Shown piece by piece: positions 17,588 through 28,002 of a stretch of 64,000 nucleotides of DNA. The stretch lies in NCBI GenBank assembly GCA_963843145.1, contig CAWJJC010000013.1, positions 10,874 to 74,873 on the forward strand, read 5' to 3'. This DNA is from an uncultured delta proteobacterium (lineage in GTDB: Bacteria; Desulfobacterota; RBG-13-43-22). Both the position numbers and the translations under genes were made by a program. The first letter of the stretch is position 1; every line of letters begins with the position of its first letter. The notes below the pieces were generated by a model. It had not been told where the DNA came from. It worked only from the letters and a program-made list of their open reading frames with translations, and searched no databases.

Positions 17588-20500
17588 CTACTTAAACAAG
17601 GACAATTGGGAGTCTGGGAATTTTCGCTTGTCCAGCTTTTTCTGCAACCGGGCCGCCTCCCTTCGTTTGCCTCGTTTTATCCAGATGGCCAGGGCCTCTT
17701 CCAGGAGGTCCATTCGCTCATAGACCCGGGCCTCTCCCTGTTCGTCTCCGGCCGATTTGAAGCAGCGGAGGGCTTCCTCGTAATGACCGCCGTCCCGGTA
17801 GGCTCGCCCCGCTTCCGAATAGGACCCGGCTTTTTCCAGGATGTGCCCTGCAATTCGAAAATCATGGTTCCGCCGGGCCAGGGAAACGGCCTCCTCAATT
17901 TTTCGTTCCCCCAGGAGGAATTCGACGGCCTGAAGGTAATGTCTCGAACTGGCGCCGAAGAGCTTATAATTCCAACCGGTCAATTCCAGGCGATCCAGGC
18001 TGGCTTCGAACAGGTCCTGGTCCTGATAAAACTGAACGCAGGCCAAAAGTTCCGGGTCTTTCTCCCGGCCCGCCAGCCGTTTCAGTTCGGCCAGGAATTT
18101 TTTCACCACTGGAGAAATAGATCGACCGAAGAGCTTTCCTTCCCGGACCACCTCGAAAAGCCCGTTATAATAGCGGGTCTGGAGCAGAAAATCCAAAACG
18201 GGAGCGGGCGGGCTTGACCCCCAGAAGGGTATGGTTGAGATGAATTGCTCCACGGCGGGCCGCCACTGCTCCTTACCCCCCTGCCCCAGGAGTCGTCCCA
18301 GAAGTTCGGCTACAAAAACCTGGGTCCGGAGGCGGAGGTGGTAATATTCACCCGTTTTTAGATACTTATTCAAAATGGTCTGAAGAAAGGTCGGTGTAAT
18401 CTTCAGCCCGGCGGCCTCCGCCACGTATCGCCCGGCATCTTCCCAGCGATTGTCTCTTAGAAAATAATCCAGGGCCTCCTGGTCCCGACCGGTCCGGTGA
18501 TAGGCCTCCCGCACCAAGTCCGGTGCATTGACGGTCTTGAACCGGACCAGTGCCCGTTCCAGGGCGCCATCCTTTAAAAACTGTTCTCCTTCCTGGAGGA
18601 GTTTCAGTTCCGTCCGGGCCTCCTGCCGGCCCTCGCCAAGATGGAAGGAAAGGAATTCGGCAGCCCGCTCCCATTTATCCGGAAGCGCACTTTGCTCGAT
18701 TTCCAGAGCGGCCTGATAGTATTCTTTCAATGCGTAAAAACACTCGGCGGCTTTTTCATGAACCTTCAGGGCCTGGTACTGGGGCAGGGCCAGGTTGTAA
18801 ACCCGCTTCTTAAAGAAGAAATCGGCCGATTCCCGGTATTGCCCCAAGGCGAAGGAACGGACGGCCGCTTTCAGTAGGTTGTTCTTAAACACGGCCTGAT
18901 TGGCTTCCGCTTTCACGAGGTCGGCCTGATCTTTACCGGTTCGAGCGAACCGGGTGAAGGCTTCCATAGCCCCAGCCAGGTCCCCGCCCTTTTCATACAG
19001 CAGGGCGGCCCGGTAATCGTCCCCTCCCTTGACGTAGCACTCCAACAATCGGGCCGGGTTTTTCAGCCGTTTATACAGAACGGCGGCCTCGGCCCAGTTG
19101 CCGGCCTGGTAAAAAAGGTCCGCCGCTCGATTGAGCTTTTTCAATTTTTTAAAGAGGGCCGCGGCCTGATCGTACAGCCGTCCGGCCACGAAGGCCTCCG
19201 CCGCCTCCGAGTACTTTTTATCGGCGGCCAGGTATTCGCCCAGGCGTTGATAATTCCCGGCCTTCCGCCAATTCTCCAGGGCCTTGACAATCTCCTTTCT
19301 TCGGAGCCACTCCTCCGCGGCCAGGTCATGGTCGCCTCGCTGCTCGTAAAGGGCGATCCGGCACAGGGCCATCTTTTCCCGATCCTTTAGTTTTTCCCAA
19401 ATCCTCAGGGCCGGCTCCCACAACCCGGACCGCTCAAAACAGGCACCCGCCTGAGGCCAGTAGCCGTGCTTCTCGAAAAGCGGGGCGGCTTCCTGAAATT
19501 TCTTTCGCTGCTCCCAAACGAAGGCCTGGGCGATCTCGGCTCGATCGAGGCGGCCGGCGTTTTTGTAACATTCCAGGGCCGCCGGGTAATACTCCCGCTC
19601 CAGGAAGTAATCCCCCTGATCGGCCCATTCCTTCGGCGAGGAGACCCGGTGCCAGAGCTGGGCCAGCGCCTCCGGATCGGACGTCGGGAACAAAAGCTCA
19701 TCCAACTCGGGCAGGTCCCAGATCTCCCCACCCGGATCATAGACGATAAGGATGTTCCGGGCCCGGGTAATGGCCACATAAAGCAGGTTGATCTCGTGGC
19801 GCAGATGCGGTCGGCCGCTTCTCCCGAAGTCACTGCCGTTACGAAGGCGCCGCCAGAGTGGAACGGATTTCGGGTCGGCGGAAAATTTCCAGACCAGGAC
19901 CGTATCAAATTCCAGTCCTTTGGCCTCCTGAATGGTGAAAATCAACTCCGTTCCCAAGGACTGTTTCAGCCGGGTCTGCTCTTCCCGGTCCCGGACAAGA
20001 ATAACCTGCCCGGCCGCCTGCATCCGCAGTTGGGACAGGATTTCCCGCTCCTCCCGGACGGTCAGCAGGAAAGGAGGCCGGCCGTTGAATTTCCATTCCT
20101 CTCTTATCTCAGAGCCGGACAGCCCGATCAGACGCTGTTTAAGGTCCAGTAGGGCATTGGCCAGTTTGACCACACTGCCCACACAACGGAAGTTGATCCG
20201 CAGGGAGTGCACCCGGGGGACCTGGATTCCACGCTCGAAAAATTTATTCCGCACCTCCTCCCATCGAAAGCCGCTGGGATTGATGATCTGTTTGGTATCC
20301 CCGGCCAGAACCACGTTCTCCGGAGAACCGGCCAACCGGAAGATCAGGGCCAATTGCACGTCGGCGAAGTCTTGGACTTCGTCACAGACCACCAGATCAT
20401 ATGGGGTTCGGGAGTCGGACCCCTGGCCCAATCGGCCCAGCACCCGCCGGCAGAGGTCGATCTCATCCCACAGCCCCTGTTCCTCCAGCTTGCCCTGATA

Positions 20501-21817
20501 ATAGGTGGCGATGTCATAGAGCTCCCGGCGTTCATACAGAAAATTGGGGGCCCGTTTCTGTCCCAACTGGACGTATTCCGGATAGGTCAGGAGGGGGTCC
20601 GAGAGCCCCCTAGATTTTTTCTCCAAGATCCGCCCTATCTCCAGCAGCGCCAGCCCCTGTTCTTTCCGCCACAGGCCCTCATCGGTAGTAAGACTCCGGG
20701 CCAGCCCTTCCAGACCGGCGAACCCGGTCTTGCTTTGTAGAAAGGCCTGAATCCTAGGCGCGGTTTCGAGGTTGACCAAACCGAGCAGCCCTTCCTTTAA
20801 TTCCAGCACCCGGTCCCGCAACAGGGGCCCCTGGAGGTAGGCCTGGGAAAGGCTCTTCCATCGTTCCAGCCGGAGCACCGGTTTGGCCCCCTTGATAATG
20901 GATCGGACTTCCTCCCAGACCAGTTCGGCATCGTACCGGCTGGACAAGCGGTGATTTCGGAAGAGGACCTCAAATTCACGCAACCGGACTTCCCGGTCCG
21001 GGTGGAATGACCCAATCGCCGGGCCGAGAAGATCCCGAAGGAGGTCCCGGAAGACGCAAAAGTCCGGTCGTAAGTTGGAGTCTTCCAAGCCGGTCCGCAC
21101 CGTCAGCCCGTCATAGAGGCGCCGGCTGAAATCCCTCAGAAAAGGGTTGTAGGTCAAAAATAGTTTTCGGTGCCCGGCAAACTCCGGTTTAAGCAGATAG
21201 TAGACCGCCAGGGTGGTCTTGCCGCTTCCAGCGGTACCCGAAATAAGGACCGGCGGGGAGGCTTCCAGCACCCGGGCCTGCTCTTCGGTCAAATAAAGAA
21301 ACAGCTCCAGGTCATCCGGTTTCCCCGCCTGGCGAAGCCGCTCCCATTCCTCCTCGTTCAGAATTAGCCACCGCTGGGGCCCGTAGTCGTCCGGCACCTG
21401 CGCTTCGATGGCCTCTTGGCTGTAGGCCGCGGCGGGCAATTCCTCCAGGATGACCTCCGGGTATTCTTCCTGGGTTTCCGGAGCAAAATCCAGGAAGGGG
21501 GCGTTTTCAGGCAAGATTCGCCGGGCCGTCCGGTTGACTTCGTCATGGCCGATCAGCCCCCAGAGATAGACGGCCGTCTGGGAACCCTTCCGGCCCAGGG
21601 TGAAAAGCATCCGGTCCGACCGGGAAAACCGGGCCTCAAAAACGACCCTCCCGGAGCTGCCTTTCAGCTTCTTGACCCGCAGTCCGGCGTCCCACAGGCC
21701 GGCCCGCAGAAACTCCAGTTTTTCAGTCAGCCTTTCTTTTTCCCTGGCGCCGAGCGACGGCAGGGCCTTTTTAAGGCATTCATTGAGTAGCAAAATATAT
21801 TTTTGCCCGGACATCAC
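17588..21817 (-). CDS. RelE-like domain + UvrD-like SF1 helicase + TPR repeat protein (TRANK1-like)
   Basis: GTAGSGKT, DEVQD, GDTKQ, NFRC, TIQEAKGLEFD, LYVAITRAR; long C-terminal helical repeats; N-terminal ~95 aa with RelE-like pattern. Confidence 0.85.
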   Translation of the reverse strand: MMSGQKYILLLNECLKKALPSLGAREKERLTEKLEFLRAGLWDAGLRVKKLKGSSGRVVFEARFSRSDRMLFTLGRKGSQTAVYLWGLIGHDEVNRTARRILPENAPFLDFAPETQEEYPEVILEELPAAAYSQEAIEAQVPDDYGPQRWLILNEEEWERLRQAGKPDDLELFLYLTEEQARVLEASPPVLISGTAGSGKTTLAVYYLLKPEFAGHRKLFLTYNPFLRDFSRRLYDGLTVRTGLEDSNLRPDFCVFRDLLRDLLGPAIGSFHPDREVRLREFEVLFRNHRLSSRYDAELVWEEVRSIIKGAKPVLRLERWKSLSQAYLQGPLLRDRVLELKEGLLGLVNLETAPRIQAFLQSKTGFAGLEGLARSLTTDEGLWRKEQGLALLEIGRILEKKSRGLSDPLLTYPEYVQLGQKRAPNFLYERRELYDIATYYQGKLEEQGLWDEIDLCRRVLGRLGQGSDSRTPYDLVVCDEVQDFADVQLALIFRLAGSPENVVLAGDTKQIINPSGFRWEEVRNKFFERGIQVPRVHSLRINFRCVGSVVKLANALLDLKQRLIGLSGSEIREEWKFNGRPPFLLTVREEREILSQLRMQAAGQVILVRDREEQTRLKQSLGTELIFTIQEAKGLEFDTVLVWKFSADPKSVPLWRRLRNGSDFGRSGRPHLRHEINLLYVAITRARNILIVYDPGGEIWDLPELDELLFPTSDPEALAQLWHRVSSPKEWADQGDYFLEREYYPAALECYKNAGRLDRAEIAQAFVWEQRKKFQEAAPLFEKHGYWPQAGACFERSGLWEPALRIWEKLKDREKMALCRIALYEQRGDHDLAAEEWLRRKEIVKALENWRKAGNYQRLGEYLAADKKYSEAAEAFVAGRLYDQAAALFKKLKKLNRAADLFYQAGNWAEAAVLYKRLKNPARLLECYVKGGDDYRAALLYEKGGDLAGAMEAFTRFARTGKDQADLVKAEANQAVFKNNLLKAAVRSFALGQYRESADFFFKKRVYNLALPQYQALKVHEKAAECFYALKEYYQAALEIEQSALPDKWERAAEFLSFHLGEGRQEARTELKLLQEGEQFLKDGALERALVRFKTVNAPDLVREAYHRTGRDQEALDYFLRDNRWEDAGRYVAEAAGLKITPTFLQTILNKYLKTGEYYHLRLRTQVFVAELLGRLLGQGGKEQWRPAVEQFISTIPFWGSSPPAPVLDFLLQTRYYNGLFEVVREGKLFGRSISPVVKKFLAELKRLAGREKDPELLACVQFYQDQDLFEASLDRLELTGWNYKLFGASSRHYLQAVEFLLGERKIEEAVSLARRNHDFRIAGHILEKAGSYSEAGRAYRDGGHYEEALRCFKSAGDEQGEARVYERMDLLEEALAIWIKRGKRREAARLQKKLDKRKFPDSQLSLFK

Positions 21818-22006
21818 CGCTTCCTCTCACCCAAACCCAACCTCCTAACAGAAATCTCAGGAGGTCTCAACTACCTTTATAGTCACAACCGGAACGGATT
21901 GGAAAGAAAATAAGCGGCTCATCCAGGCCGTCCATTCGGGAGGGTTGCCCCTTTCCTCCCCGGGATAATCCCAAAGGATCGAGGTCTGGGACATAGTAAT
22001 TTGCCC

Positions 22007-22068: not shown

Positions 22069-22341
22069 ATGTCCAACCTACAGATAAAAGGGATCGATGA
22101 GGAGCTTTATGGCCGGATTAAGGAAATGGCCAATGCGGAAAATCGTTCCCTGAGCCAGCAGATCCTTTTCCTGGTCAAGAAGTATCTGGCTAAACGAAAA
22201 AAAATCCGGTCCGCCAAATCCCCCGCTCAGGTCCTTCTGGACCTCTCCGGCTCCTGGGACGATGAACGGGAACCAGAGGAAATCATCAAGGAGATCAAGC
22301 AGAATCGACGAAATTCCCGAAAATTAGAAGAGGGCTGGTGA
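22069..22341 (+). CDS. FitA/VapB-like RHH antitoxin
   Basis: LQIKGIDEELYGRIKEMANAENRSLSQQI; LSGSW motif; overlaps a PIN gene. Confidence 0.8.
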   Translation: MSNLQIKGIDEELYGRIKEMANAENRSLSQQILFLVKKYLAKRKKIRSAKSPAQVLLDLSGSWDDEREPEEIIKEIKQNRRNSRKLEEGW

Positions 22342-22526
22342 TGTACCTCCTCGATACGGACACGGTCATTTTTTCACTGAAAGGGCATCCGGTTGTCCAG
22401 GAACACCTGCGGCGCCGCCTGAACGATCCACTTCAGATAAGCATAGTCACTTGCATGGAACTCTACTACGGGGCCTATAAATCCCAACGGGTGACCAGTA
22501 ACCTGGCTACGGATCGAAGGACTTAA
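22338..22526 (+). pseudogene. vapC: Truncated VapC PIN toxin
   Basis: YLLDTDTVI...ISIVTCMELYYGAYKS, ends at 62 aa; C-terminal catalytic half absent downstream. Confidence 0.8.
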
Positions 22527-23807: not shown

Positions 23808-24065
23808 TTAGGGATGGTGTAAGATATCGTGAGTACCCACTTTTCTTAAAAGGTAGATATCTTTTTCAATTTGGAAGGTAAAGCGATCGACGGCGGTGAC
23901 CCGGCATTCCCAAATATTTCGCGGATCATGCATCTTCTTAAGATTTAAGGAGGGGTGCTGGGGATTTGATAATAATAGTTCAAGCTGTTTATCTACGGAT
24001 TTTTGGATTTTGGAGGACAGCTTCCGATAATCCTGGACAAAGTGATGGGTAAAGGCCAATTTCAT
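23808..24065 (-). CDS. RelE/ParE-superfamily toxin
   Basis: FTHHFVQDYRKL, NPQHPSLNLKKM, WECRV, RKVGTHDIL. Confidence 0.8.
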   Translation of the reverse strand: MKLAFTHHFVQDYRKLSSKIQKSVDKQLELLLSNPQHPSLNLKKMHDPRNIWECRVTAVDRFTFQIEKDIYLLRKVGTHDILHHP

Positions 24066-24346
24066 ATTTTGGCGGTTTTAAGGGCTTTCAGGCCTTTCCG
24101 GAGGTTTTCAAAAGGCCCTAACACTTTGCCTCTAGCAATAGCCTCGTCTGCCAGAGCTTCACAGGCCTGCCACTCTTTGGTGAAAAAGTAAGCCTGGTCG
24201 GGATGAACCATCTTGACCGGCTTCAAGACCAGCTCGCCATCTTGATTTTCAACTTCCAGATAATCGCCAACGGCAATATTGAGAGCCTTTCTTAGCTCGA
24301 TAGGAATGGTAACCTGGAAATTTTTTTTAACCTTGACTAAAGACAT
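24062..24346 (-). CDS. AbrB/MazE/SpoVT antitoxin
   Basis: VKKNFQVTIPIELRKALNIAVGDYLEV; ATGA overlap with toxin; AT-rich palindrome at about 24372-24408. Confidence 0.85.
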   Translation of the reverse strand: MSLVKVKKNFQVTIPIELRKALNIAVGDYLEVENQDGELVLKPVKMVHPDQAYFFTKEWQACEALADEAIARGKVLGPFENLRKGLKALKTAKI

Positions 24347-24485
24347 TTCATTTACCCCTGCTTCTTGTTTCAAATTGCAAAATTTACGATTTTAGAAATT
24401 TGTAATTTATAATATCATTTTAGCAAATGCCCTTTTGCTCTGGCCACAAGTTTTTTCTGAAAAGCTGAGGGCCGCTGTCGATGTC

Positions 24486-24560
24486 GTCACCCCGGTCCCG
24501 CGATCCGCGGGATAAACTCCAGTCGGGATCCAGACTTGCCTAACCTGGATTCCGGCTGAG
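24486..24560. repeat. Degenerate GTCA...GGATCCAG/CTGGATTCC palindromic repeat
   Basis: GTCACCCCGG...GGGATCCAG...CTGGATTCCGGC, same style as the other REP-like elements. Confidence 0.5.
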
Positions 24561-24668
24561 GTTCACTATCAAGAATAAAGGCTTGACTTAACGGCACTGG
24601 GTTGGACCCTAAAATAGAACAACCAGCCCGAATCAAAAGCCGAACCGGTTCCGGCGAAGGGAGGACCA

Positions 24669-25199
24669 ATGGGGGTGCTGGATAAAATCGAGAAAAACGA
24701 TATCCGGGACCTGCTCGGCAAGGGCTGGCTGACCCATGACGGGTTGTGGTTTTTCCACACCTGCCGGGAATTGGGTATCGAAAGAGCCAACACCTTGAAC
24801 CTGGCGGCCATAAAATCCCTCGCACCCATCGAGGTCGAGCGGGCCAAACGGATCCTGGGGATGGGCCAGGAGAAGATCCAGGACTTTGACCGGCTCATGG
24901 ACTTCCTGCTCGCGGCCCTGGAATTGACGCTGCCTGCTTCGGTCTTCAAGAAGTGCTCCTTCATTTCGCCAGCTAAAGACGTAATCCGCTGGGAATGGGA
25001 GAAAGGGCAATGCTTCGCCTACAAGGGGATGAAACAGATCGGGGCGATCGATGGCTACCGCTGCGGGGTGATGTACCGGATTGAATGCTGGCTGGAAGCG
25101 TTGGGGATCGAATTCTCGATGCACCCCAGGATCGACGGGTGTCTCATGCATGAAAAGGGTGCCTGTGAGGGGGAAATTCGAGTCTTTCTCCACGGCTGA
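24669..25199 (+). CDS. DUF6125-like hypothetical protein (4VR/ATC-hydrolase-like fold)
   Basis: KGWLTHDGLWF motif, conserved Cys pattern C...C...C....C, GGAGG RBS. Confidence 0.6.
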   Translation: MGVLDKIEKNDIRDLLGKGWLTHDGLWFFHTCRELGIERANTLNLAAIKSLAPIEVERAKRILGMGQEKIQDFDRLMDFLLAALELTLPASVFKKCSFISPAKDVIRWEWEKGQCFAYKGMKQIGAIDGYRCGVMYRIECWLEALGIEFSMHPRIDGCLMHEKGACEGEIRVFLHG

Positions 25200-25206
25200 A
25201 AAGCAA

Positions 25207-25270
25207 GTCTAACTCAAACGAGAGCCCGATTCGGCGCTGGAGACAGGGATGTTAATCGGGAGCGTTTGTG
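25207..25270 (+). other. Degenerate attC-like site
   Basis: GTCTAAC 7 bp after a stop codon, then CAAACG..CCCGATT / AATCGGG..CGTTTG palindrome; R' box missing. Confidence 0.3.
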
Positions 25271-25727
25271 CCCTTTTGGCCAGTCTTCGGACTTAGGTGG
25301 TTGAAACGATCCTGAAAAACCAAATAAAATGGCGACCAATATTCCTTCAAGAGATTCGTTGACATTTGGAATGATTTTTGTAGGATATGATAAATTCTAG
25401 AGCCCGGGCCGGGATTGGTAACATAAATTATTATTGACTGGGGCGCTGGAAAACACCGGGTTGGAGGAATTCAGAATAAACAGTAGCGGAATAAGCAACT
25501 GGGTCGCATATCGGAGGGCCATCGCCCAGGATGTGGATCTCGATTTTAACCAAAGGATATTGAACACCCGACCCATCAAATCCATTTTACTGACGTGCAA
25601 AAATACGCTCCTTGCGTGTGGCCGACCTAGACTTTACAAAAGGGATCGAACGAATTTCCAGACACAATATTTAGGCTTTACATTTTGTTGAAACAACCAC
25701 CACGCAGATATCTCGGGAGGCCAATCG

Positions 25728-26956
25728 ATGCCGCAACTATTAGGTATACGTGTCAAGAACTTTAAGTCACTCCGGAGTGTGAGCCTCGGACAGGTCGGTT
25801 ACGGGCAAGGCGAAGCCTTACCCCCTCTAAGTTGCTTTATCGGCCCAAACGGATGCGGAAAATCAAGCTGACTGGACGCGTTTGGGTTCCTCTCCGATTG
25901 CTTAAGAGAAGGAGTCGAGGTAGCCTGTGATAAACCTCAAAAGAGGTGGTTTTGGGAGGCTGCGAACTCAAGTATTTCCATTGATCCATTGAATTTGACC
26001 TTTACTATAGAGAGAGTTAAGCGCCCGACCAATCACTTATAACTTCGAAGTAGCAGAATTCAATGGTGTTCCATTCGTCCTTCGTGAACATCTTCGCCAA
26101 CGCCGCAAAGGACAGAAGCATGGTCAACCATTCACCTTTCTCCGCTTGGAAAGGGGAAAGGGAGTCGTATGGGCCGGGGATAAGACAGAAGATGAAGAGG
26201 GCGCAACCCAACTGGAAATCAAGCTCGAGGATAACGATCGACTTGGTATCACAACGCTCGGCCAACTGTCGGAACATCCGCGCATAGTGGGGCTGGCGAG
26301 TCATATCTGAGTTGGTATCTCGTCCTATTTCGTCCCTGATGCGGCACTGACGACTCCCCCCGCAGGTGCACAGAAACATCTTGATCGTACCGGGGAAAAC
26401 CTCTAAATGTAGTACAGTATCTGGAAAGAAACCATAGGGATCGTTTGAGAGTATCCTAGAGCGAATCCGAAAGCGGATACCTGGAATAGAGAGGATTAAG
26501 CCCGAGAAAAGCCAGGACGGTCGTCTTCTCTCTGAGATTCAACGAACGAGGCTACGAGGATCCAACTTTTTTCAGCATAGTATGTCTGATGGGACATTAA
26601 AGATGTTTGCTTATTTGTTGCTTCTTGAAGGATCCTGAGCCCCCGGGCATTTATCGGCATCGAGGAACCAGAGAATGGACTCTATCATAGATTGGTCGAG
26701 CAACTCGCCCGAGAATTTAGGCGATACGCTGAGAAATCCAAAGGAAAGATCCAGGCGCTCATCACCACGCATTCTCCTCAGTTCGTAGATGCCTTGAGCC
26801 CTGAAACAGGTATGGCTTATGGAGAAGGATGATAAAGGATTTACACAGGTGAAGAGAATCGGCGGACATGCCGGTAATCAGCGCTCTAGACGAAGAAGGT
26901 ATACCTCTCGGCAGCCTTTGGATAGCAATCATTTTGAAGAGAGGTTTGAAGGATGA
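25728..26956 (+). pseudogene. AAA_21/AbiEii-type ATPase, multiply frameshifted
   Basis: Manual translation: IRVKNFKSL, GPNGCGKS (Walker A), MSDGT, IGIEEPENGL (Walker B), ITTHSP. Confidence 0.85.
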
Positions 26957-27582
26957 GGATTCACATTCTCGTTGAAGGTCCATCAGAAAGGGCTTTTCTA
27001 GAAGGATGGCTGCCGAGATTCCTCCCCCCTCAACACTCATTTAGAATTATCCCGCACAGAGGAAAAGGAAAGGTTCCTGACCACCCATCAAGAAACCAGA
27101 TCCAAAACGCCAAGGTCTCCTTGATCAATTGCCTGCTAAATAAGGGCCTACGGGCAGGGAGCGAGACCTGATGCGGATAGAATTCTTGTACTCATCGATT
27201 TAGATCATGATGATTGTTTTGATCTCAAAAGCCGTATGGTCGACCTGCTCAACTATTGCAGTCCTCCGCCTGTAGCTCTCTTCAGAATAGCGATCGAGGA
27301 AACTGAAGCTTTCTATCTTGGTGATAAATCTGCCATCCGCAGTGCTTTTCCAAGGTCTTAGGCTATCAAAGATGGATCTCCTATATCCAAGACAGTATCT
27401 GCGCCACATGGGAACTATTTCGAGAAGTAATTGGAGAATCAGCCGACGATAAGGTAAAATGGGCCAAACTAATGGGTACCCATCTGGCAACAGAGTGGAA
27501 AGGTGTCTCTGCAAACAGCTCTAAGTCATTTCGGCAGTTCTGCAAGGGAATACTGAAACTTGCAGGGGAAGCAATTGATTAA
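26953..27582 (+). pseudogene. DUF4276 (TOPRIM-like) protein, frameshifted
   Basis: ILVEGPSE, GLLDQLP, VLIDLDHDDC, RIAIEETEAFYLGD, NSSKSF; ATGA overlap with the ATPase. Confidence 0.8.
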
Positions 27583-27729
27583 AATTAAGGGATTCGGGCA
27601 GACGGGCCGGATTAGATGATTGATGATCTCACATAACGTCAACGGACACATTAAAGGACGTGATAAAATAATCCAGTTTTTGGAAGTGCCCCATGCCTGA
27701 AGCGAAGAAATAGAATTACGCATCCGCGT

Positions 27730-27809
27730 TTAAGAAAGAGAGCGATCAAGGCGTTGCAGAGACACGGCTACCCGTGGCGGAAGGTCAGCCTTGATCGCCG
27801 CCGTTAGGC
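27730..27809 (-). other. Degenerate attC-like site
   Basis: Minus strand: TGA-A-GCCTAAC, then GCGATCAAGGC...GCCTTGATCGC stem, then CTTAAAC as a possible mutated R'. Confidence 0.4.
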
Positions 27810-27810
27810 T

Positions 27811-28002
27811 TCATATGAAATGATCCTTCTCCTCCAGTGTGGAGTTCCCATTTAAATATTCCGGCCACTGTTCCAATTCCTTGCCCATACCCTCCTCGGC
27901 CATAGCCTTCTCCTTAACCGGATCAAGCTTCGCACATTCCCTGGCCAAGCGGTTTCTTTCAAGTTTTTTTAGTTTTTTTTCCATGGCATTCTGAATGGCT
28001 TT
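27811..28002 (-). pseudogene. 3' half of RHH antitoxin plus eroded MazF start, copy 1
   Basis: AIQNAM...[36 protein letters not shown]. Confidence 0.7.

Follow-up and report, generated by a model that had tools for sequence, protein, structure and literature searches.

Several described systems resemble parts of the protein considered here, which is encoded on the minus strand at positions 17588 to 21817 of a 64,000-nucleotide stretch of DNA (the window) from an uncultured delta proteobacterium (GenBank assembly GCA_963843145.1, contig CAWJJC010000013.1). The protein joins a predicted RelE-like N-terminal domain to a UvrD-like superfamily 1 (SF1) helicase and a long helical-repeat tail. Its N-terminal domain is predicted to have the fold and topology of the RelE, YoeB, and HigB type II toxins and has a profile link to a toxin family with a member 2 kb away. 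In contrast to those toxins, it has no cognate antitoxin gene and is joined to 1300 aa of motor and tail, and its catalytic positions would read Glu/Arg/Arg/His, whereas those of E. coli RelE are Lys/Lys/Arg/Arg. A likeness in layout is found in Cami1 and other multidomain RelE defense proteins, in which a RelE-fold RNase is controlled by a larger sensor part of the same chain; however, control in Cami1 is exerted by CARF, whereas an SF1A helicase and a solenoid stand in this place here.

Nhi and Hna, like Gabija, are nuclease-helicase defense systems made of one chain or two genes. Gabija GajB follows the same logic of effector, NTPase, and sensing part and gives a UvrD-type match (best E = 1.1e-12), but this match lies only over the helicase motifs, and a GajA-like partner is lacking. 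Membership in Gabija or another system of the PADLOC collection was rejected, since only short helicase stretches matched and no partner was conserved. The earlier note, a first reading made from the letters of the DNA, had drawn a parallel with NLR-like (Avs) antiphage proteins in which a helicase takes the place of their NTPase. The effector-NTPase-repeat layout is indeed common to both, and it is all that is shared with STAND/NLR-like proteins: the NTPase here is not of the STAND type, and the matches to nSTAND3 (E = 0.021) and AAA_16 (E = 1.7e-4) both fall below the cut-off and are P-loop-level similarities.

A survey of multidomain RelE/ParE toxins (Gerdes 2025, mBio; PMC11980606) omitted many multidomain proteins without an identifiable antitoxin, and the words "helicase," "UvrD," and "TPR" do not occur in its main text, to which our comparison applies; its supplementary tables may list this architecture. 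No published description of a RelE-helicase-repeat family was found in the literature searched, with InterPro and subscription journals outside its scope. We assign a probability of roughly 45% to the reading developed below, that this is an autonomous single-chain RNase-helicase-solenoid protein that acts in conflicts with phages or mobile nucleic acids and whose RNase is restrained in cis.

Anatomy of the protein and its N-terminal domain

The gene is a single intact open reading frame (ORF) of 1409 codons plus a stop, defined by its translation and by database homologs, that runs from a GTG start at 21817 down to the stop codon at 17588-17590. The intact 1409-aa ORF reported in the earlier note was thus found as one open frame; the strand, unnamed there, is the minus strand, and plus-strand frame 1 over 17588-21817 is riddled with stops. 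The strings quoted in that note all occur in the translation: GLWDAGLRVKKLKG...FEARFSRSDRMLF...LWGLIGHD at residues 40-92, GQVILV at residues 603-608, TIQEAKGLEFD at residues 628-638, and SSPKEWADQGDYF...AALECY at residues 725-751. The codon after GTG is an ATG (21814-21812), with an AGGA-type ribosome-binding site (RBS) 7-8 nt upstream. Because this ATG is preceded by the putative purine-rich RBS-like stretch GAGAGGAAG (21822..21830, minus strand, upstream of the start codons) and because a 1408-aa database entry is identical to the window protein, the true start is likely the ATG at 21814 rather than the GTG.

Relatives of this protein (P0001 hereafter; P numbers denote proteins, L numbers loci, and G numbers genomes) are numerous. 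A word-seeded HMMER search in which 8000 candidates were scored returned 449 proteins at E <= 0.001, and among the 120 matches listed, most were 1388-1521 aa long, with 39-84% identity and 97-100% query coverage. The ORF is therefore not a chance frame, since its relatives are mostly of the same length and align nearly from end to end. In the source records they are called "UvrD-helicase domain-containing protein," "tetratricopeptide (TPR) repeat protein," or "hypothetical," and the JGI name of one relative, P0113, begins "mRNA-degrading e...". A relative is encoded in 200 stretches, from which we kept 78 loci on one-genome-per-species contigs. Some of these loci (83-84% identity) belong to delta-proteobacterial metagenome-assembled genomes (MAGs); further carriers include many Spirochaetota as well as Neomarinimicrobiota, Acidobacteriota, Aminicenantes, Ignavibacteria, Calditrichota, and KSB1, while Lentisphaeria, Clostridium lentum, and one Heimdallarchaeota MAG have relatives that are shorter and more divergent. 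The family is an uncharacterized, widespread one of approximately 1400-aa proteins across many bacterial phyla.

Some of these loci have features of their own. The relative in the Heimdallarchaeota MAG (L074:5230-9945) is a 1571-aa protein with 29% identity and carries a RelE-like domain at residues ~17-119 in addition to the helicase. Two full-length paralogs lie ~20 kb apart on one Spirochaetia chromosome (L029/L037) and again on a single contig (L020/L071), with one more partial copy at L020, and another chromosome bears two distant copies (L049/L059).

The RelE/ParE-fold (BECR) domain occupies residues 5-100 (21518..21805, minus strand) and was delimited by an AlphaFold2 (AF2) model, Foldseek matches, conserved columns, and a chain of hhalign comparisons. 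For these analyses, residues 1-125 of P0001 were aligned with 49 homologs from the loci (alignment A2, 50 N-terminal domains). The AF2 model from A2, with a predicted local distance difference test (pLDDT) value of 83.2 and a predicted template modeling (pTM) score of 0.73, has its elements in the order β1 (7-11), α1 (13-21), α2 (24-39), β2 (60-63), β3 (68-77), β4 (80-90), and α3 (91-100), which is the compact β-α-α-β-β-β-α fold of the RelE/ParE (BECR-fold) superfamily. Searched with Foldseek against the PDB, this model matched Pyrococcus horikoshii aRelE best (1wmi_A; E = 2.3e-5, TM score of 0.76 on the target), followed by YoeB/ParE 6n90, Staphylococcus aureus YoeB 7v6w, and Thermus thermophilus RelE 2khe; YafQ, HigB, and Mycobacterium tuberculosis RelE also matched, and the ribosome-bound CRISPR-associated RelE protein Cami1 (8phj_X) stood at rank 14. 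The first 31 rows listed (ranks 1-39) are RelE, YoeB, YafQ, HigB, or BrnT-type toxins or proteins containing such a domain, with Txp40 (rank 15) the one row not assigned to the RelE superfamily. RelE-toxin clusters also headed the ESM Atlas results (0.93, 182 shared features), which we treat as a lead only.

At the level of sequence profiles, the link of the N-terminal domain to bona fide RelE is indirect and passes through stand-alone toxins. Compared by hhalign, A2 matched the window's own stand-alone toxin, P0242, at 82% (E = 1e-5), and it matched an alignment of P0242 and 29 relatives from genomes of the phylum (A6, 30 stand-alone toxins) at 96.6% (E = 6.2e-10, 66 columns). When compared with PDB sequences, A6 in turn found Methanocaldococcus jannaschii RelE3 (E = 9.3e-9) and E. 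coli RelE (E = 0.001). Direct recognition failed: Pfam gave no family at E <= 10 on residues 1-150 and NCBIfam gave none, phmmer and the A2 profile found nothing significant among PDB sequences (the best match being a McrB-type N-terminal domain, E = 0.062), hhalign against the genome's own YoeB gave 1.3% and no match, and BLASTP of the N-terminal domain against the neighboring toxin P0242 produced zero alignments. The RelE link was obtained only through the fold search and the profile-profile steps. Guided by the model, we assign the N-terminal domain a RelE-like fold with high confidence; the RelE/YoeB pattern that the earlier note had proposed for this region thus finds its counterpart in the predicted fold and in the profile link to toxins.

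The A2 profile was also used to ask how often this domain occurs in other settings. A HMMER search of the full library returned 257 proteins at E <= 0.001; among the 150 matches listed, 88 had at least 700 aa, 27 had 200-699 aa, and 35 had fewer than 200 aa. Those of at least 700 aa contained the helicase where examined. The ends of the 35 shortest suggest that these are pieces cut off by contig ends or frameshifts and not free-standing toxins, so this RelE subfamily appears to be essentially always fused to a UvrD-like helicase. Two matches, P0345 and P0355, stood out by their 11 and 13 matched stretches; P0345, a secreted Ig/PKD-repeat protein, was rejected as spurious.

We then considered the residues that could form an active site. 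L37, G40, W42, E61, R69, T73, H91, and D92 are invariant in all 50 N-terminal domains, and K49, K50, R63, F72, W86, and the linker motif P107-F108-L109-x-F111 are at least 90% conserved in A2. Chained alignments place window residues F60-E61-A62-R63 on the W-E-x-R motif of A6 and on Y51-K52-I53-K54 of E. coli RelE, and D68-R69 on the Y-R motif of A6 and on Y60-R61 of RelE. Because E61, R63, and R69 (codons at 21635-21637, 21629-21631, and 21611-21613, minus strand) align to K52, K54, and R61, the window domain would have Glu, Arg, and Arg at three catalytic positions. H91 (codons of H91-D92 at 21542-21547, minus strand) is the first residue of helix α3 in the AF2 model, a position that presumably matches that of RelE R81 at the start of its own helix α3. 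The stand-alone toxins share the G-x-H-D ending, with H79 invariant in 30/30 sequences of A6. Neubauer et al. (2009, PMC2807027) match RelE K52 to the Glu that serves RNase Sa2/T1 as general base, K54 and R61 to the pair of transition-state arginines of that enzyme, and R81 to the His that is its general acid. Judged from these alignments, the N-terminal domain is likely an active RNase.

A conserved linker (residues 101-165; 21323..21517, minus strand), recognized in the alignment and the model, contains the motif N-A-P-F-L-x-F (residues 105-111), and its short strands pack against the helicase in the model. The UvrD-like SF1A helicase core follows at residues 166-720 (19658..21322, minus strand) and is supported by Pfam matches above the cut-off (UvrD-helicase at residues 428-512, E = 4.2e-11; UvrD_C at residues 625-692, E = 1.6e-8), invariant columns, AF2, and Foldseek. 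In 54 aligned sequences of residues 1-760, the invariant positions comprise Walker A G194-T201 (GTAGSGKTT, residues 194-202, 21212-21238), D479-E480-x-Q482-D483 of motif II (DEVQD, 20369-20383), G506-D507-x-x-Q510, N542-F543-R544, T628/K633-G634-L635-E636-F637, and R685. Among the motifs of the core are GDxKQ, TIxEAKGLEFD, and VAxTRAR, with TRAR likewise invariant in the 54 sequences, and a helical insert spans residues ~291-405. The AF2 model of residues 1-760 (pLDDT 87.8, pTM 0.89) suggests that the RelE-like domain, linker, and motor are held in a fixed arrangement, and in Foldseek it was matched best by RNA polymerase-bound HelD and by UvrD, PcrA, and Rep (E = 5e-14 to 1e-10). Walker A, motif II, motifs III-VI, and the 1A/2A RecA-like fold that mark the SF1A UvrD/Rep/PcrA group are all present; the SF1 helicase with all motifs that had been read from the sequence is thus UvrD-like by both Pfam and fold.

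The α-helical repeat tail (residues 721-1409; 17591..19657, minus strand) is of clathrin-heavy-chain/TPR/SNAP-like character by Pfam, PDB sequences, and TRANK1 alignments. It begins with an S-x-P-x-E-W..QGDYF junction common to TRANK1. Pfam places Clathrin at residues 855-907 (E = 1.4e-10) and SNAP at residues 1285-1395, with TPR_GEMI5 below the cut-off and SNAP/TPR-type repeats spread between about residues 850 and 1395; the matches to clathrin heavy chain, SNAP, and IFT-type repeat proteins in Pfam and among PDB sequences are weak. These Clathrin and SNAP/TPR-type matches correspond to the approximately 650 aa of TPR/clathrin-like repeats described earlier. No other part of the protein varies as much as the tail: across 35 aligned sequences, pairwise identity averages 0.58 for the RelE-like part, 0.54 for the helicase, and 0.34 for the tail, and it is only 0.25 over residues 1001-1250. 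The tail may act as a sensor, as the earlier note suggested.

Relation to eukaryotic TRANK1

TRANK1, reportedly a bipolar susceptibility gene according to the title of one paper (PMC8278099), is the animal protein that the earlier note had named in connection with the helicase and repeats. This resemblance is real and is collinear over the helicase, the junction, and the first repeats. Comparison of residues 440-800 with proteins of 2467-5000 aa gave 142 matches, mostly from plants, some of which are named "TPR and ankyrin repeat-containing protein 1" by NCBI. The best long match, P0122 (3666 aa, with ankyrin and zf-MYND domains), aligned with P0001 by BLASTP over residues 410-961 (E = 2e-37) and itself matched animal TRANK1 proteins of vertebrates, molluscs, echinoderms, and cnidarians (E = 1e-117 to 1e-140), including one entry named "Lupus brain antigen 1-like." BLASTP of P0001 against a TRANK1-named protein of Linum covered residues 125-1010 (E = 2e-35), and against emu TRANK1 (P0463) it aligned residues 404-914 with residues 1354-1972 (E = 5e-38). 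In the emu protein, AHQVVLV corresponds to GQVILV, TVYEAKGLEFD corresponds to TIQEAKGLEFD, and STPEEWIARGDYF..VAAKCY aligns with the window's SSPKEWADQGDYF..AALECY.

The same BLASTP output contained a weak collinear match of residues 13-75 to emu residues 828-895, and the profiles extend it. When A2 was compared with an alignment of 25 eukaryotic TRANK1 proteins (A4), hhalign gave 95.9% (E = 6.1e-9, 96 columns), pairing A2 positions 9-105 with emu residues 827-951. Counterparts of the bacterial residues are frequent in A4: in emu numbering, E881 is found in 23/25 sequences, K or R at 883 in 18/25, R889 in 22/25, W933 in 24/25, H939 in 22/25, and D940 in 13/25. A profile of residues 1-760 gave collinear matches that start from profile positions 4-25 in 14/18 animal and 3/7 plant sequences examined; UvrD and Rep of the genome that contains the window match this profile only partially (~1e-10). 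Pfam had no annotation over the pre-helicase RelE-like stretch in any of the three TRANK1 proteins scanned, and the ESM Atlas returned only sub-threshold ParE/YhaV/RelE leads (0.82-0.83) for an abalone TRANK1 segment. Going by the profile alignments, TRANK1 itself holds a predicted RelE-like domain upstream of its helicase, a link that goes beyond what the earlier note had claimed. No publication joining "TRANK1" with "RelE," or "TRANK1" with "UvrD" and "bacterial," was found within the literature searched, and the three papers listed there that mention TRANK1 together with helicase and TPR deal with other subjects.

By sequence comparison, the bacterial protein is the prokaryotic counterpart of a conserved core of eukaryotic TRANK1, and this three-part core is common to both: a putative RelE-like domain is followed by a UvrD-like helicase, and an S-x-P-x-E-W..G-D-Y/F junction leads into helical repeats. 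TRANK1 proteins have 2000-4000 aa, with N-terminal ankyrin and TPR repeats and a long C-terminal extension, and those of plants have an extra Upf1-like helicase and DUF6469, whereas the bacterial protein opens directly with the RelE-like domain and has only 25-30% identity with them. Because Pfam found no ankyrin match on P0001 and the protein begins with the RelE-like domain, we file it as a TRANK1-core homolog and not as TRANK1. In the TRANK1-named plant proteins P0178, P0207, and P0126, DUF6469 and an Upf1-like SF1B helicase (AAA_11/AAA_12) precede the RelE-like domain, the UvrD-like helicase, and the repeats, such that two helicases lie in one chain. A gene on a Thermus aquaticus plasmid (NZ_CP010826.1, 37175-38122) annotated as "ankyrin repeat domain-containing protein" has 29% identity to helicase residues 410-735 and possibly encodes a bacterial protein with ankyrin repeats and a TRANK1-type helicase.

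A FastTree phylogeny of 576 columns united the 32 eukaryotic sequences in one clade (support 1.0) and 42 main bacterial sequences in another (0.968), with the Heimdallarchaeota, Lentisphaeria, and C. lentum forms branching outside both; the tree comprises sequences within the 1-760 profile listing and leaves out OG_L084 (zero profile match) and family members beyond that listing. Its root is unreliable, as UvrD and Rep from the window's genome span just 88 and 115 of the 576 columns, and we therefore make no claim about the donor or the direction of transfer between prokaryotes and eukaryotes.

What has been reported about TRANK1 links it to interferon. It is included in a list of human interferon-stimulated genes (PMC6880163). 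In a study of poly(I:C) treatment in IRF7-overexpressing and IRF7-knockdown chicken cells, it is one of three genes present on both differential-expression lists, in opposite directions, from which the authors infer regulation by IRF7 while describing its function as little known in any species (PMC4505898). In crocodile cells treated with poly(I:C), TRANK1 increased by +4.72 log2 (PMC5702629).

Distribution, mobility, and function

The gene stands alone. Among 558 neighbors of 76 loci (five genes on either side), there is no conserved partner gene or cognate antitoxin; the largest neighbor family occurs in only 7/76 loci, and candidates for a conserved antitoxin or partner were rejected because no neighbor family goes beyond this number. 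Nor is the organization that of a type II toxin-antitoxin (TA) pair, as the ribbon-helix-helix (RHH) gene upstream in the window is divergent and belongs with a VapC fragment. Without an antitoxin, a RelE-like toxin domain would need to be restrained by the rest of its chain.

The gene is also accessory. With residues 1-760 as the query, we found it in 3/20 other genomes of the same family, in 1/3 other genomes of the same genus, and in none of 40 genomes from the phylum's other families; its own genome has one copy. In a DNA comparison covering 13 kb around the gene, the congeneric genome G003 has both the gene and the upstream flank in common with the window. In G001, of the same genus and 77% complete, the HtrA and RHH flank is followed 16 bp later by the last 459 bp of the gene, reflecting a deletion of about window positions 18050-21997. 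This 3'-terminal remnant (G001:C12:43828-44810) lies directly beside the RHH gene as the trace of a fresh deletion. In G017 and G020, which belong to another genus, the match is limited to window positions 17591-21826, essentially the ORF, at 82% DNA identity, and the flanking resistance-nodulation-division (RND) pump gene is matched at 66% on other contigs. Locus L002, which by its coordinates is probably that of G020, has a barnase-barstar pair, a DDE transposase, and a HicB-like gene as neighbors. Moreover, two cyanobacterial plasmids carry divergent members (31-32% identity over residues 6-969 and 29-820) adjoining integrases, DUF262/DUF3696, ParAB, VapC, and Cas1. The gene thus behaves as a dispensable, mobile, single-gene unit.

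On the reading favored here, the protein would take part in conflicts of the cell with phages or with mobile nucleic acids of other kinds. Its motor and repeats would bind or detect nucleic acid or protein of foreign origin, and the protein would be turned on as ATP is bound or hydrolyzed. The cis-restrained RNase would then cut RNA, either free or on the ribosome, and so stop growth of the infected cell. Counted in favor of this reading are the TA pairs, the barnase-barstar pair, and the transposase among the neighbors in the window and at L002, and the variability of the tail. The induction of the eukaryotic relative TRANK1 by interferon and poly(I:C) supports a defense role indirectly. Of the proposed steps, this role in conflict or defense is plausible but the least certain, and it is inferred more weakly than the RNase activity. 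The one-gene defense system proposed in the earlier note is a reasonable hypothesis: the gene has no conserved partner and is both accessory and mobile, but a defense-island signal is not evident at the 38 loci scanned without a control set, and PADLOC gives only generic UvrD matches.

Several observations weigh against this reading. The length and sequence of the protein are conserved across phyla to an unusual degree for a phage sensor, and the family has zero matches in 50,697 phage records. Among 146 neighbors (two on either side at 38 loci), no defense-island signal is evident, which in a sample without a control set means that enrichment is unmeasured and not that it is absent. Each PADLOC family matched at most two of these 146, with single strong matches to ZorD/DrmD/DpdE-like SNF2 helicases, PDC-S01, and patatin. 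The commonest neighbor Pfam families are those of transporters (MFS, ABC permease, and TonB-receptor domains). The window protein itself gives PADLOC matches of the generic UvrD/GajB/RTasHel kind over the motor only (best E = 2.5e-13). HelD-like and UvrD-like folds equally suit transcription or repair roles. Finally, R63 is missing in 4/50 N-terminal domains (L030, L032, L047, and L050), and the inferred equivalence of H91 to RelE R81 comes from topology, not from residue-level superposition.

Some of these points would fit an RNA or translation surveillance or stress factor, an accessory quality-control device rather than an immune one, in which the RelE-like domain cuts mRNA on stalled ribosomes while the motor and tail strip or remodel RNA-protein complexes. 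The strong conservation across phyla, tail included, the prevalence of transporters and metabolic genes among the neighbors, and the lack of a specific PADLOC model for the family are all in keeping with such a function, as is the action of RelE relatives in the ribosomal A site (PMC2807027). A quality-control factor, however, would be expected to be more evenly retained than a gene that is present in 3/20 genomes of its family and 0/40 from the phylum's remaining families, has been lost from a same-genus genome, and is matched in another genus only across the ORF; its occurrence on plasmids and the interferon induction of its eukaryotic relative argue in the same direction. We consider this explanation unlikely on balance.

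Less probable still is that the RelE-like domain serves for binding or regulation without catalysis, in a UvrD/HelD-like motor that works in DNA repair or transcription and uses its tail as a scaffold. The structures that residues 1-760 match best, HelD on RNA polymerase as well as UvrD, PcrA, and Rep, would agree with this, as would the members that lack R63, and ParE toxins are described as having the same fold without catalytic residues (PMC11980606). Against it, E61, R69, H91, and D92 are invariant in 50/50 domains at positions corresponding to the RelE/RNase T1 catalytic ones, eukaryotes retain the Glu (23/25), Arg (22/25), and His (22/25), and the genome already has three ordinary UvrD-family helicases besides this one. 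Very improbable is a selfish element of the addiction type, in which the toxin carries its own inhibitor and the gene persists by post-segregational killing without benefit to the host. A toxin-family domain situated among TA loci in a patchy, plasmid-borne gene that moves as one unit would suit it. Against it, addiction requires far less than 4.2 kb encoding a conserved ATPase and a tail of 690 aa, a single chain with no labile antitoxin allows no differential decay, and the gene was cleanly lost in G001.

Surrounding genes and wider meaning

The earlier note placed the gene next to TA loci, and two such loci were confirmed at 22069-22526 and 23808-24373. The first (plus strand; Pfam/NCBIfam) consists of an RHH (CopG/FitA-like) antitoxin-type gene and a 62-aa ORF that covers only the first 56-58 positions of the 130-aa VapC models; this ORF looks like a truncated VapC toxin, ending where the HtrA-like protease gene starts. 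The second pairs the 85-aa RelE-family toxin P0242 (23808-24065, minus strand) with an AbrB/MazE antitoxin (24062-24373). P0242 carries the motifs W-E-x-R, Y-R, and G-x-H-D, and among stand-alone proteins it is the one most closely related to the N-terminal domain of the helicase; of 301 genomes searched within the phylum, 67 contain its family, many of them more than once.

Other features of the window include a region at 24000-28000 with a G+C content of 0.475-0.49, compared with 0.57-0.61 around the helicase gene, and several small ORFs without a Pfam match; this region may form a short variable islet next to the helicase gene. At 15470-15645, between a TetR gene and an EamA gene, lies a ~140-170-bp interspersed repeat that recurs at dozens of places in two genomes of the same genus (most of 45 matches in G002 and many of 36 in G001) and looks like a miniature inverted-repeat transposable element or repetitive extragenic palindromic (MITE/REP-type) element. 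A 1465-aa ORF at 10358-14755 (minus strand), adjoining an OEP gene and a TetR regulator, unites a membrane-fusion (HlyD/CusB-like) part at residues 40-337 with a full AcrB-type RND pump at residues 407-1437, an unusual fusion of two efflux components. Four contigs of a wetland metatranscriptome run (X1) align to the helicase gene at 17541-18102, 18123-18273, 19757-19790, and 21665-21815, three at 95-99% and one at 90-95%; the run is an RNA library, yet these contigs are no proof of transcription, and the uncovered parts are uninformative.

We tentatively consider it possible that a RelE-like RNase, an SF1A helicase, and a helical-repeat core together form an immune module of ancient origin that bacteria, an Asgard archaeon (Heimdallarchaeota, L074), and eukaryotes have in common, with vertebrate TRANK1 being an RNase-helicase. 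If so, the unannotated RelE-like domain of TRANK1 (emu E881, K883, R889, and H939) would be catalytically active and would cut viral or ribosome-bound RNA, and the bacterial protein would be a tractable model for TRANK1. For TRANK1, this amounts to a testable hypothesis, namely, that its core is a prokaryotic-type RNase-helicase with a conserved Glu/Arg/His site. A RelE-fold RNase that lacks an antitoxin and forms part of a helicase-solenoid chain would extend the known modes by which TA-type toxins are controlled. Should the bacterial protein defend against phages, it would represent another immune module common to bacteria and animals.

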